A stretch of 64,000 nucleotides of DNA from Clostridia bacterium (GTDB taxonomy: Bacteria; Bacillota; Clostridia; UMGS1883; UMGS1540): NCBI GenBank assembly GCA_045656005.1, contig JAZOQG010000032.1:1438-65437 (forward strand). Reading direction: 5' to 3'. This document shows, one piece after another, positions 56,931 to 60,872 of this stretch. The translations under genes and the position numbers were made by a program. Position 1 is the first letter of the stretch; each line of letters begins with the position of its first letter. The notes beneath the pieces were generated by a model. The model saw only the letters and a list, made by a program, of their open reading frames with translations. It did not search any database and was not told the DNA's origin.

Positions 56931-57344
56931 TTATTTAGTTGCATTATTTATCTTCTTTTGTTTTCCGCCACCTATATAACCGATAATTGTAAGCGGAAGT
57001 CCAATGAAAATGTATATGGGAAAACATATTGTTCCAATTAAATATAAAGTAGCTGAGAACTTTGCCAAGCCACTTTTCTTGGCTAAATAAGCACACCAGC
57101 CCAATAGTGTTCCTAGCGTAAAGGTACATATATGTACTAACAGTAAAATTACTATTGCATAAATTATATTTACAGATACAGAACTAAATCCCACTAAATC
57201 AAAAACTGCACCAAATGTTTGTTGACAGTACTCAATATAATCCATTCCTACGGAGGCAATTATTGCGCCGCCAAAGAACCAAAGTAGGTATCCAGCATAT
57301 AATGTTGATAAAATATTTGAAATAAGTAAAGTTTTGCTTCTCAT
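56931..57344 (-). CDS. Small integral membrane protein (4 TM)
   Basis: 137 aa with four hydrophobic helices; last gene of the SPFH operon. Confidence 0.5.
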   Translation of the reverse strand: MRSKTLLISNILSTLYAGYLLWFFGGAIIASVGMDYIEYCQQTFGAVFDLVGFSSVSVNIIYAIVILLLVHICTFTLGTLLGWCAYLAKKSGLAKFSATLYLIGTICFPIYIFIGLPLTIIGYIGGGKQKKINNATK

Positions 57345-57355
57345 ATATATTCTCC

Positions 57356-58201
57356 TTACTGTGCTACTTCAAGCAACTTCTTTGTAATTCTTCCTTGAAC
57401 TTCGAGGTAATAAGCAGTTTCGGCAGCATTCATATCTTCGCTTTCCCATTTTTCAAAATCATCCATCATTTTTGTGTATTTACCCATATATTTGGTGTAA
57501 TCTGAAAGTATGCTCATATCACTAGGATTATTTGCGTATTTTTTCATGATTGCAACATATTCATCAAAGAATTTTTCGTAACTATCCATTGCTGACTTGA
57601 AATCAGCTCTGATTCCACCATTATTTGTTTCCTTCTTTTCTGGCTCTTTAGTGGTTGTTTCAGAAGTGGTTTGTTTATCTTCAGCTGATGAAGCATCAGT
57701 ATCATCACTGATGACATTATTAGATTCTGCATTATTTTTTTCGTTTCTGCTATATGTATCTTTCGCATAATAAATTACGATACTTTTGTCATTAGAAAAC
57801 ATTTGCTCATAATCAGAATAATTGTCATTCTTCTGTATATTGCCTATTCCGTTTTGTATATAATCATCAACTTTAAAAACTGACCCTTTTTCCAATGTAT
57901 CTATTTTATAAGAAAGTTTATCCAAAATATCTTTTGCATCTGTTTCTATAGATTTCACTTCAAATCCATCTGCTTCTAAAACTTCTATAGCAGAACTGTA
58001 GTTTACACCAAATACATTAGGAATTTCATATTTTCCTGTATTTTTACTACCATCCTTACCACCTTCAGGGTTGAGCAACATTATAAGTACAACTACTACA
58101 ATAGCTGAAACCCAAACAATTCTTTTCTTATACCATTTCTTTTCTACATTGTCTTTTTCTAAAAGCCAATCCAAGCCTTTTTGATACCATTTCTTATCCA
58201 T
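57356..58201 (-). CDS. Membrane-anchored protein with Asp/Glu/Ser/Thr-rich extracytoplasmic region
   Basis: One TM helix (VWVSAIVVVVLIMLL) after a short basic N-terminus, a low-complexity acidic stretch, and a C-terminal globular region. Confidence 0.5.
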   Translation of the reverse strand: MDKKWYQKGLDWLLEKDNVEKKWYKKRIVWVSAIVVVVLIMLLNPEGGKDGSKNTGKYEIPNVFGVNYSSAIEVLEADGFEVKSIETDAKDILDKLSYKIDTLEKGSVFKVDDYIQNGIGNIQKNDNYSDYEQMFSNDKSIVIYYAKDTYSRNEKNNAESNNVISDDTDASSAEDKQTTSETTTKEPEKKETNNGGIRADFKSAMDSYEKFFDEYVAIMKKYANNPSDMSILSDYTKYMGKYTKMMDDFEKWESEDMNAAETAYYLEVQGRITKKLLEVAQ

Positions 58202-58230
58202 TTTTAAAATCCTCCTATGTATTGTTTATT

Positions 58231-58863
58231 TTATTTTAACGGAGAGCCACAATATTCACATTCTCCCATGTCTCCTACAATTGTATTGTTTGCGCCACAG
58301 CATGGACAAGCAATTATCTTGGTTTCAACATTAACAGAAAATGTATTCGTCATATCTCCTGATTGGTCCTGAATAATGTTTGGTAAAACAATCTCTCTTG
58401 TACCTTCATTGATATAAGCGTTTTTCAGATAACCTTTGTTTATCAGCTTTTGAATATCTTTTTTAGCCACATCATAAGATTTGCCCATTGAAGAAGCTAT
58501 AACATCAATTTGTCTTTCGTTTCCATTTACAATAACAGATAAATATTTTTTGACATCTTCAGCTTCTCTTTTGATTTTTTGAGAAACTTTCTGTAATGCA
58601 AAACCTGCAATACCGAAAAATAATATCATTCCAATATCATCCGAACCGAAACCATCACTCAAACAAGCAATAAATCCGATTCCGGCAATGCAATATGATG
58701 CTATACCAATACCGCCTATAAGTTTTCCTGCACCCATAGCGGTTTTCTTATCAACAGAAACACGCTTTATTATCAAAAATATACCTACCGGCCAAAAAAT
58801 ACATAATGCTAAGATTATTACCGGCCATGAATATAATCCGCTGATTTTACCTTTTTCGTTCAC
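58231..58863 (-). CDS. Membrane protein (4 TM) with C-terminal zinc ribbon
   Basis: Four TM helices, a soluble about 90-aa region, then CPCCG...CEYCG at the C-terminus. Confidence 0.5.
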   Translation of the reverse strand: MNEKGKISGLYSWPVIILALCIFWPVGIFLIIKRVSVDKKTAMGAGKLIGGIGIASYCIAGIGFIACLSDGFGSDDIGMILFFGIAGFALQKVSQKIKREAEDVKKYLSVIVNGNERQIDVIASSMGKSYDVAKKDIQKLINKGYLKNAYINEGTREIVLPNIIQDQSGDMTNTFSVNVETKIIACPCCGANNTIVGDMGECEYCGSPLK

Positions 58864-58883
58864 TTTAAATTACCTCCTGAATT

Positions 58884-59558
58884 TTAATAACTTCCTCTTT
58901 TAGTGCTTTTGATTTTTAAAGAACGCAGTTTTATAGCATTTTTGATATCTGATATTTTTTGCGGAATACTTTCATCATTATCAGATAATAACTTATGTAA
59001 TTCCTCAAACAGCTCTGATATTACAATTTCATCACTGGATAATGTACTGTTATCTGAATATCTAAGTAATTCGCTTAGTTCATCTAAATCATTGCTGTAA
59101 GCACTTTCCTTGTATTCAATTGCCAAGCCTTTTGCAGTTGTGTATAAATTATCTACAACCGCTTGATTTTCGGATAATACCTTATTTTTACTTCCTATGT
59201 ATTCGCCAAAATAAATAATGATTACATCAACCGCAAGCATAATACCTAACGCAAGTAGATTTAAAAGAATATATGTTTTTATCAGCAACGGAAAAATATT
59301 AACAAATATAATTGACATTACCAAAACAATACCTAAATGAAAAAGGCTGGCTATAATGTTTGCAACTCCAAATATAGATTTCTTTATGTACAAGGCTTTT
59401 ATCGTTCCAATGCCTTCTACAAAAATCAAGAACATCAGGGAAATCCACCTCATTGGTATTGTAAAAATATTATCAAATGTCAATAAGTAAAATATTATTG
59501 TTGCGACTATTGAGGTAGCACCGCAAATCAAAGTAATAGCTTTAGAATTCTTCAACAT
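58884..59558 (-). CDS. Membrane protein (4 TM) with acidic cytoplasmic C-terminal domain
   Basis: 224 aa with four TM helices in the first 120 aa. Confidence 0.5.
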   Translation of the reverse strand: MLKNSKAITLICGATSIVATIIFYLLTFDNIFTIPMRWISLMFLIFVEGIGTIKALYIKKSIFGVANIIASLFHLGIVLVMSIIFVNIFPLLIKTYILLNLLALGIMLAVDVIIIYFGEYIGSKNKVLSENQAVVDNLYTTAKGLAIEYKESAYSNDLDELSELLRYSDNSTLSSDEIVISELFEELHKLLSDNDESIPQKISDIKNAIKLRSLKIKSTKRGSY

Positions 59559-59570
59559 ATTTTCGCCCCC

Positions 59571-60872
59571 TTATTCTATCTTAGTCCCACATTCAGGGCA
59601 GAATTTTGTGTTATCTTTTATTACCTTTCCGCAGCCACTACATTTCTTTACTAAAGAATGACCGCATTCAGGACAAAACTTACTGTTTCCGCTTAACAGA
59701 TTGCCGCAGTTCGGACATGGTGTAGGTACTTTTGCCCCACATACAGAACAAGAGGTAGCACCATCGGGCAAATCTGCCTTGCAACTGCTACACGGATTAT
59801 ATTTTTTACCGCACTCTGGACAGAATTTTGTATTTTCGGTTATATCCGCATTACATGATGAACATTTAATGATTTTATCTGTTGTTTTGTTATCTTCAAT
59901 AGAAGCAGTAGTATCGAAACCGCAATGGTTACAGAATTTTTCATTTACACCAATTCGGGCTTTGCATTTTGGACATTCTTTTGTATCGTTAGTATTCAGT
60001 GTTTGCGTCAGCCCACCAAACTGCTGACCGATTGCTCCGCCAACACCAACACCCATTCCTAAGCCAATACCTGCACCCATTAAGCCGCCTTGCATGGAAT
60101 TAGGATTTGTAGCTGCTCCTTCTAAAGTGTCAAACGAACGCTCTTGCTGATAGCTATAACCAACAATATCCATTTCAGCTCTTTTGGCAAGTGCTTTTTT
60201 GAGTTGTATAACTGCATCATCATCTTCCGGGACATTTATATCGTTAACAAAGAAAGAGACCAGTTTGATTCCATATTCATCAAATATTGGTGAAATCTTT
60301 TCTTGTAAATATGTAGATATTTCATCAAGGTATGCGTTGATTTCCAATATGCTGATATTTTTATGAACCAAATAAGAAGAGATAACATCTTTTGCTTTGG
60401 TCAGATATACTCCGCGGAAGAATTTTAATATGCTTCCTTTATCAAATTGCGGAAGAGTACCGACAAGCTTTAATAAAAACTTTTTAGATTCTTCAATCTG
60501 TATTCCAAATTGGCCAAAAGCTCTTACTGGCACAAATACCTTATATTTTGGATCCTGCAACTGGATGGGAGTAGAAGTACCCCATTTAACATCCAACGAA
60601 AAGACTTTATTGATATACCATACTTCCGCAGTGAACGGTGAACGACCACCAAAAGGAAGATTTATCAGTTTATTTAAAATCGGGATATTTGCAGTATCTA
60701 ATGTATGTCTGCCTGCACCAAAAACATCGCAGACTTGCCCGCCTTTTACCAAGATTGCTTCCTGTGATTCGTTGACTATCAACTGTGTCCAGGTTCCCAA
60801 TTCGCTGTTTGGATATTTCCAGGCAAACACATCTGGATTACCGTCATATTTTATGACATCAATAATTGCCAT
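59571..60872 (-). CDS. SPFH/Band-7 (Band_7_1-like) domain protein with Gly-rich linker and five tandem CxxC-x10-11-CxxC zinc ribbons
   Basis: N-terminal IIDVIKYDGNPDVFAWKYP...QLIVNESQEAILVKGG matches the virion-core-like SPFH family. The five ribbon repeats are CPKC...CNHCG, CSSC...CPECG, CSSC...CSVCG, CPNC...CPECG and CSGC...CPECG. The start is the ATG at 60872, with a GGAGG RBS. Confidence 0.7.
   Translation of the reverse strand: MAIIDVIKYDGNPDVFAWKYPNSELGTWTQLIVNESQEAILVKGGQVCDVFGAGRHTLDTANIPILNKLINLPFGGRSPFTAEVWYINKVFSLDVKWGTSTPIQLQDPKYKVFVPVRAFGQFGIQIEESKKFLLKLVGTLPQFDKGSILKFFRGVYLTKAKDVISSYLVHKNISILEINAYLDEISTYLQEKISPIFDEYGIKLVSFFVNDINVPEDDDAVIQLKKALAKRAEMDIVGYSYQQERSFDTLEGAATNPNSMQGGLMGAGIGLGMGVGVGGAIGQQFGGLTQTLNTNDTKECPKCKARIGVNEKFCNHCGFDTTASIEDNKTTDKIIKCSSCNADITENTKFCPECGKKYNPCSSCKADLPDGATSCSVCGAKVPTPCPNCGNLLSGNSKFCPECGHSLVKKCSGCGKVIKDNTKFCPECGTKIE

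Follow-up and report, generated by a model that had tools for sequence, protein, structure and literature searches.

Background and the locus

As a rule, SPFH proteins assemble into oligomeric rings or cages that surround membrane clients, as in HflK/C-FtsH and QmcA-YbbJ (summarized in bioRxiv 10.64898/2026.02.06.704340). To our knowledge, the SPFH proteins of the Band_7_1 type are the least understood branch of the flotillins and stomatins, and only the Bacillus case of YdjI/SamI has been studied. Here we describe an operon headed by a Band_7_1 protein (g1), located on the minus strand at positions 56931-60872 of a 64,000-nucleotide stretch of a Clostridia bacterium genome (GenBank assembly GCA_045656005.1, contig JAZOQG010000032.1, positions 1,438 to 65,437), referred to below as the window. 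The operon lies next to what looks like an invertible promoter (inverton) and among antiviral defense genes.

In Bacillus subtilis, YdjI/SamI is a soluble Band_7_1 SPFH protein without a transmembrane (TM) helix, in which a low-complexity region is followed by a C-terminal zinc ribbon (PMC8581546). Its partners in the pspA-ydjGHI (samGHI) operon are YdjG, in which two zinc ribbons at the N terminus are combined with an NTF2-like domain and a TM segment, and YdjH, a membrane protein with a TPM domain (PMC8581546, PMC9239133, PMC11237479). YdjG and YdjH recruit YdjI, which recruits PspA and restrains the signaling of YdjGH (PMC8581546, bioRxiv 10.64898/2026.02.06.704340).

Three points about the Clostridia locus can be considered secure: a three-gene core (g1-g2-g3), the YdjI-type homology of g1, and the anatomy of an inverton in the OFF state. 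Going beyond them, and by analogy with the Bacillus system, we would give an even chance to the proposal that the locus is a three-gene, YdjI/SamI-like sub-membrane SPFH scaffold module that buffers or signals membrane or cell wall stress.

A conserved core of three genes

The window carries five close-packed open reading frames (ORFs) at this position, g1 to g5, with intergenic gaps of 11-29 nt (Table 1). A preliminary description, made from the letters of this DNA alone, had taken them as a single operon with a Band_7 head protein, a Gly-rich linker, and five zinc ribbons, and all five ORFs are present as it described them, save that the 434 residues it gave for g1 include the stop codon. 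The status of the five genes as a unit, however, had to be revised. A scan of relatives with one genome per species gave 142 species representatives, 80 of which were fetched and complemented with loci from metagenome assemblies. Clustering of 1380 neighboring ORFs from 84 loci (cited by number below, as L006) recovered g1 in 84/84, a g3-like gene in 75/84, and a g2-like gene in 72/84, the next commonest family being a generic ABC transporter (17/84 loci). The triad is invariably found on one strand and in the order g1-g2-g3, with the g3-like gene sometimes present in two or three copies. The genes of the window form a genuine syntenic membrane-associated operon, but only the first three are conserved across the 84 loci, and a conserved five-gene system was rejected on this clustering in favor of a three-gene core.

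The first gene product matches the Pfam family Band_7_1 (PF13421) with an E value of 6.6e-48 along residues 20-232 (profile positions 4-207 of 211), scoring 163.6 bits against a Pfam cut-off of 24 bits; the match to Band_7 is weaker (1.3e-5). Before the ten CxxC pairs at residues 300-428, which make up five zinc ribbons, g1 has a conserved Gly-zipper-like segment at residues 262-281, whose mean hydropathy over 19 residues is 1.5; the Pfam models DZR/Zn_Ribbon_1 match the five ribbon stretches. All 20 ribbon cysteines are invariant in an alignment of 12 sequences, and exactly five ribbons are present in 80/84 of the homologs. No TM helix was found in g1, nor any segment reaching the hydrophobicity threshold for one. 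The family is represented by more than 100 database clusters, with identities of 72-97%. No record was returned when the product encoded in the window was looked up exactly. A sequence search of the PDB found no solved Band_7_1 relative, giving marginal zinc-ribbon matches only.

The second gene has no match in Pfam and belongs to no named family. Its C-terminal cytoplasmic domain is predicted to be a four-helix bundle (AlphaFold2 model with a predicted local distance difference test [pLDDT] of 74, and >90 over residues 130-215), and the structures that it matches are generic four-helix bundles only. There are 502 cluster representatives of this family at 50% clustering, and since the best 150 of them are listed as full-length proteins of ~215-240 aa, fragments aside, g2 appears to be a dedicated partner rather than a promiscuous domain. 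The model of g3 is poor (pLDDT 57) and comprises TM helices, a winged-helix-like unit, and a ribbon; its helix-turn-helix (HTH) similarity is weak, with Foldseek on this low-confidence model retrieving MarR/DtxR-like winged helices only at E>=0.26, which is not significant. That g2 and g3 might be paralogs was considered and rejected (hhalign probability <1%).

Relation to the YdjI/SamI system

Comparison with the Bacillus system was made through an Enterococcus gallinarum replicon (L096), recovered by tblastn of plasmid records, in which a Band_7_1+DZR gene is followed by a Zn_Ribbon_TF and then a TPM gene. Its SPFH protein was taken as YdjI-type because the locus shows the domain set published for YdjI, YdjG, and YdjH (PMC11237479, PMC9239133), and the comparison rests on this ortholog because a candidate B. 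subtilis YdjI sequence failed an exact look-up and was discarded. Along SPFH domain, Gly-rich region, and ribbons, g1 is colinear with the Enterococcus protein, sharing 25% identity over 345 aa (E=1e-17). Judged by its profile match and this colinearity, g1 is a Band_7_1 homolog of the YdjI/SamI-type scaffolds.

The resemblance extends to organization. As in YdjI/SamI, the Band_7_1 SPFH domain of g1, which has no membrane anchor, is followed by a Gly-rich segment and by C-terminal ribbons and, as in pspA-ydjGHI, the SPFH gene is encoded together with two integral membrane proteins, one of them bearing a ribbon of the CPxCG...CxYCGS type. This motif accounts for a 26-column match between the C terminus of g3 and the N terminus of the YdjG-like protein (probability 13%), while g2 gave none. 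What would distinguish the module from the known YdjI-type systems, as far as the sequences tell, are the five fixed ribbons of the g1 family against one or two in YdjI, unnamed partners (g2 and g3) that are unrelated in sequence to YdjG and YdjH, a gene order in which the SPFH gene comes first and pspA is neither in nor near the operon, and control by an inverton, within a mobile-element defense hotspot, instead of sigma-W.

The preliminary description had not recognized the operon as a described system, which holds insofar as no NCBIfam or PHROG model names it and no convincing PADLOC-DB v2 match was obtained for any of the five proteins (the best, all partial, were g2 to PDC-S06 at E=4.5e-4, and g3 to CasR and g4 to PD-T4-6 at ~1e-3), but the homology of g1 to YdjI/SamI gives it a described relative. 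That homology also touches on a flotillin-like membrane role, which the same description had set against its own suggestion of a defense or surface-remodeling function, though only in part, as the partners are different proteins and there is no PspA. Nothing relevant on SPFH proteins with invertons or in defense was found in a literature search, and this version of the module appears to be undescribed in the searchable literature. It would define a second, compact version of the Band_7_1 systems, and at least 142 species representatives carry it. This version combines a scaffold fixed at five ribbons with two membrane partners that are dedicated to it and unnamed, and it lacks PspA, so that the scaffold function would be separated from the ESCRT-III-like effector.

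A probable invertible promoter upstream of g1

Promoter switches operated by tyrosine recombinases are known from Escherichia coli (fimS/FimBE), from Clostridioides difficile (the RecV switches, such as that of cwpV), and as invertons of gut Bacteroides and Firmicutes. The space between the start of g1 and a tyrosine recombinase gene, the stop codon of which is 6 nt away from the outer repeat, is filled by what looks like a switch of this kind, with repeats flanking a short promoter segment and the recombinase adjoining (Table 1). The putative ON/OFF switch of the preliminary description is supported by this arrangement. The 28-nt arms of the two sites are 96% complementary and stand 206 nt apart. 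Both follow the pattern ACCACATAAT-NNNN-ATTATGTGGT, and their cores, CGTG and CACG, are reverse complements of each other, giving a perfect 24-nt inverted repeat. The core site pattern occurs twice in the 64 kb, both times at the switch, against 0.05 occurrences expected. Only one sigma-70-type promoter with 12/12 matches exists between 56200 and 62300, and since it is inside the segment and faces away from g1, the operon of the window is left without a promoter, in the OFF state. For a flipped segment (60928-61133), the predicted ON junction reads ...GCGATTGCACG-ACCACATAATCACGATTATGTGGT-ATTTGC.... The hairpin within the segment, an equivalent of which is kept in L008, L019, and L022, may insulate against read-through.

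The switch resembles the known invertons in its short repeat pair around ~200 bp, its outward consensus promoter, the adjacent recombinase gene, and the downstream operon of envelope proteins. It differs from them in that the controlled genes are an SPFH module, for which no report of phase variation was found in the literature search, and in that each site is itself palindromic around an asymmetric core of 4-6 nt.

Orthologs of the recombinase are found directly upstream of g1 in L006, L007, L008, L010, L019, L092, L097, and L099, and one short ORF further upstream in L017 and L022. The cores of the switches in relatives read TTGCG, TTTGC, CAGC, and TTCTCG, each change being mirrored in the partner site, a compensating pattern that would be expected of functional crossover sites, and the interior of the segment measures 194-236 nt. 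In L022, the 12/12 promoter is directed toward g1. Compared with the interior of L008, that of L022 scores 34 when flipped and 3 when not (shuffles, 9.8 +/- 4.5); the interior of L017 groups with L022 and that of L019 with L008 (63.5 in the same orientation versus 20.5 flipped). The interior of the window is too diverged to beat shuffles and was placed with L008 and L019 by the direction of its promoter. Since homologous interiors are found in both orientations between related loci, we infer that the segment was inverted, by flipping, during the history of the family. Two metagenome contigs, L086 and L098, begin within the segment itself, 10-40 nt inward of the repeat next to the recombinase, and these breaks might reflect an assembly ambiguity arising from mixed orientations.

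At its other end, the transcription unit probably extends through orf91 and the DUF6809 gene to make seven genes, as the gaps are only 39 and -1 nt and the first terminator-like structure is found at 56314-56352. No Rfam match or tRNA gene was found at the locus in Rfam and tRNA scans.

Some other members of the family are preceded by regulatory genes. In L014, L048, L061, and L065, which have no recombinase switch, a pair of OmpR-type response regulator and histidine kinase genes lies upstream of g1 on the same strand, and in L041, L053, L076, and L085, a small Xre-family HTH regulator is located only 2-16 nt upstream of g1. These genes suggest an alternative, signal-responsive control of the same module.

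Table 1. Window coordinates of the operon, its switch, and its downstream end
Feature	Position	Strand	Remarks
Tyrosine recombinase, presumed invertase	61168-62007	-	279 aa; Phage_integrase 2e-30 and Phage_int_SAM_1 (Pfam); PHROG integrase 4.5e-40
Recombinase-proximal inverted repeat	61134-61161		+ strand ACCACATAAT-CACG-ATTATGTGGT; palindromic arms, asymmetric 4-nt core
Sigma-70-type promoter, TTGACA-17-TATAAT	61080-61108	+	12/12 match; antisense into 3' end of recombinase gene
Hairpin within segment	60989-61020		10-bp stem; upstream of promoter in promoter's own direction; -14 to -15.5 kcal/mol in either direction
Invertible segment	60928-61133		206 bp; holds promoter and hairpin
Operon-proximal inverted repeat	60900-60927		+ strand core CGTG
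g1	59571-60872	-	433 aa (434 codons with stop); ATG start; strong ribosome-binding site AAGGAGG
g2	58884-59558	-	224 aa; 4 TM helices and 109-aa mildly acidic cytoplasmic C-terminal domain
g3	58231-58863	-	210 aa; 3-4 TM helices, weak winged-helix-like region, C-terminal CxxC..CxxC
g4	57356-58201	-	281 aa; single-pass; DUF6591 1.8e-39; acidic extracellular ectodomain
g5	56931-57344	-	137 aa; small polytopic protein, 3-4 TM helices
orf91	56616-56891	-	91-aa soluble ORF; gap of 39 nt after g5
DUF6809 gene	56332-56616	-	Small, soluble; DUF6809 5.6e-23; gap of -1 nt to orf91
Bidirectional terminator-like hairpin	56314-56352		16-bp stem, T-rich tails on both strands; between cassette and convergent Hachiman genes

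Proposed role

If the analogy holds, g1 would be a soluble Band_7_1 scaffold that oligomerizes beneath the membrane, recruited there by g2 and g3, most likely via the YdjG-type zinc ribbon of g3 (presumably the subunit for docking or anchoring) and via the g2 helical bundle. The array of five ribbons on each g1 subunit would offer a multivalent docking surface. As SamI restrains SamGH and recruits stress effectors, the complex would sense or buffer damage to the membrane or cell wall and hold back a membrane complex for signaling or anchoring. The proteins encoded downstream of g3, in the window a PASTA-like/DUF6591 ectoprotein and a small 4-TM protein, would be exchangeable, envelope-facing clients. 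Since the same flavor of ribbon heads variable accessory proteins, the YdjG-type ribbon may be a docking element for Band_7_1 scaffolds, and a more general rule suggests itself, in which a particular type of zinc ribbon docks membrane clients onto these scaffolds. In one family of mobile elements from gut Clostridia, that of the window, the module would have been captured behind a recombinase-driven invertible promoter, leading to its expression in a subpopulation only.

Several findings weigh against this proposal. The identity of g1 to the YdjI-like protein is only 25%, and the protein compared is an Enterococcus ortholog assigned by domain content. The profiles of g2 and g3 showed no detectable homology to the YdjG-like and YdjH-like proteins (hhalign probability <1%, the ribbon motif excepted), and no TPM domain (TPM_phosphatase) was found by Pfam in g2-g5. 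No conserved PspA-like gene was found near the 84 loci, the window itself covering 64 kb only, nor does PspA recur among the Pfam families of the 150 nearest neighbors examined below; with no linked PspA, the module lacks the effector arm known from Bacillus. As for the switch, 13/13 copies of the allele of the window (the window and 12 related assemblies) are OFF, among them the four contigs retrieved by a metagenome scan built to recover either orientation; both orientations are seen only between related loci, and flipping was never seen directly. Last, the cassette keeps a constant position between changing defense systems in one element family, which fits a role in defense at least as well.

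Defense and other alternatives

A role in defense would make the operon a membrane-level anti-phage, superinfection-exclusion, or abortive-infection module that blocks phage DNA entry or triggers membrane collapse, and that is phase-variable because it is costly. We place this reading on the unlikely side, although both the hotspot position and the phase variation favor it. In the window, the cassette lies between Hachiman on one side and ThsB/TIR/PDC-M50A genes on the other; the neighbors named in the preliminary description, Hachiman (HamA/HamB) and a TIR cluster (ThsB-like and TIR genes), were confirmed. Throughout the sister elements, the cassette is constant from the recombinase and the switch through g1-g5 to orf91 and DUF6809, and the slots on both sides are variable, the one after DUF6809 being occupied by DpnII/MboI restriction genes (L093 and L098), by HamAB (L007), by a ubiquitin-like set of BubE/ThiF(DUF6791)/Multi_ubiq plus Fic (L097), or by Flg_new and an integrase (L092). 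In Thomasclavelia cocleata, a bare triad is found between Cas9 and Wadjet. Induction of the B. subtilis pspA-ydjGHI operon by phage SPP1 has been reported (PMC11153139), and the hydrophobic, Gly-zipper-like segment of g1 could insert into membranes.

The description of the operon as part of a mobile-element defense neighborhood thus stands, as it lies between variable defense cargo in this element family. In the wider family, however, this context does not seem to hold. For 38 diverse loci, we took the two genes that flank the module on each side, which gave 150 proteins (PADLOC threshold E<=1e-10, raw counts). The PADLOC matches were limited to two T. cocleata proteins, Cas1 and JetD, one PDC-S07 candidate, and a cysteine desulfurase matching DndA/SspA, so that the defense genes come nearly all from one genome, while Pfam found integrases (6), two-component regulators (3), and AraC regulators (3), the rest being ordinary genes of metabolism, transport, and regulation, such as those for glycosidases, a tRNA synthetase, and ATP synthase. 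The association with defense appears to be local and does not seem to generalize. Nor does the operon itself look like a defense system, with no PADLOC match at a meaningful score, no nuclease, NADase, protease, or pore-forming domain detected, and close homologs found neither in PHROGs nor in the phage and plasmid collections.

In a bolder version of this idea, the SPFH-five-ribbon triad would be a membrane-based immunity or exclusion system of a new kind, carried by mobile elements at a defense hotspot and bet-hedged by the inverton, with the ribbon array and the Gly-zipper acting as sensor and effector at the inner face of the membrane; we regard it as unlikely. Whichever role applies, a module behind a switch that is OFF in every copy of the allele examined, at a defense hotspot of gut Clostridia, offers a system for testing if SPFH scaffolds play a part in bet-hedging against phages or envelope stress in the gut.

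It is quite improbable that g1 forms an SPFH cage regulating a membrane channel or protease, with g2 and g3 as the enclosed clients, in the manner of HflK/C-FtsH or stomatin/flotillin-NfeD. Oligomeric rings and cages are general among SPFH proteins, and the small multi-TM proteins g2 and g3 are strictly co-inherited with g1, much as SPFH scaffolds are co-encoded with small multi-TM partners in the flotillin/stomatin-NfeD pairs (FloT-YuaF, YqiK-YqiJ, and QmcA-YbbJ) and in HflK/C-FtsH. Unlike those proteins, however, g1 lacks an N-terminal TM or hairpin anchor, and the operon has no NfeD OB-fold partner, flotillin coiled coil, or protease; no NfeD, FtsH, or other protease domain was found in the operon or among its conserved neighbors, and the fold of g2 matches only generic four-helix bundles. 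Very improbable is a module that serves the mobile element (through entry exclusion, conjugation-associated envelope remodeling, or element maintenance) rather than host physiology since, even if the recombinase-bearing version is always accompanied by orf91-DUF6809 and its host elements carry a MobL relaxase, DUF6076, an AlpA-like HTH gene, and an integrase, more than 70 of the 84 loci are in ordinary chromosomal contexts with no recombinase or mobile-element genes nearby.

Accessory genes, neighboring genes, and distribution

The last two genes of the operon, g4 and g5, are swappable accessories and not part of the conserved unit. Besides its DUF6591 domain, g4 has a weak PASTA match in Pfam (0.003) in its extracellular region, and it is restricted to the closest relatives (L011, L019, L092-L094, and L097-L099). 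g5 matches a PHROG of unknown function (31229, 4e-15), and its slot is taken by other small zinc-ribbon/TM proteins in L006, L010, L017, and L037. Several of the proteins encoded after g3 in relatives consist of an N-terminal zinc ribbon followed by a TM helix, and others have SH3_3, L,D-transpeptidase (YkuD), or PASTA-like domains or a lipoprotein signal. The pair of orf91 and DUF6809 co-occurs with the recombinase-bearing cassette.

The Hachiman type I pair of the window (52252-56171, plus strand) comprises HamA (268 aa, PADLOC 3.1e-97) and HamB (1039 aa, 2e-302), converges on the cassette, and shares its terminator at 56314-56352. On the other side, positions 62224-63985 code for a ThsB-like TIR protein (PADLOC 1.7e-70), with ThsA not in view. 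Next come, on the opposite strand, a gene for a PDC-M50A candidate membrane protein (1.2e-32) and a second, weak TIR_2-like ORF that extends toward the end of the window. A MobL-family relaxase (2.7e-19) and a DUF6076 protein, encoded at 49984-52270, mark the region as an integrative mobilizable or conjugative element; in L092 and L097, the cassette is again accompanied by DUF6076 and AlpA-like HTH genes. The sole Rfam match of the window is a 6S RNA (RF00013, 80.9 bits) at 1265-1462 on the minus strand, and no tRNA gene was found in its 64 kb.

Hosts of the module are mostly Clostridia, with sporadic occurrences in Synergistaceae, in metagenome-assembled genomes (MAGs) labeled Deltaproteobacteria, Desulfuromonadales, and Solirubrobacterales, and in the archaeon Methanimicrococcus stummii. 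The chromosome of the latter (L073, 9001-10308) codes for a full-length g1 homolog with 59% identity, followed by a g2-like gene, a copy implying that the module has been transferred between bacteria and archaea. In one Eubacteriales MAG, the main copy is followed ~2.4 kb downstream by another SPFH gene that resembles g1 distantly (L074:12706-13887). In Parvimonas, the triad is found between a PadR-HAAS-DUF4097 (Toastrack) set and V-ATPase genes. Divergent from g1 in this genome is a gene for a 278-aa protein (L005:6980-7816, minus strand) with weak matches to amphipathic repeats of the Apolipoprotein/Perilipin type (9.8e-6), and the PadR-HAAS-DUF4097 set lies just past it, two themes with links to envelope stress systems of the Psp type.

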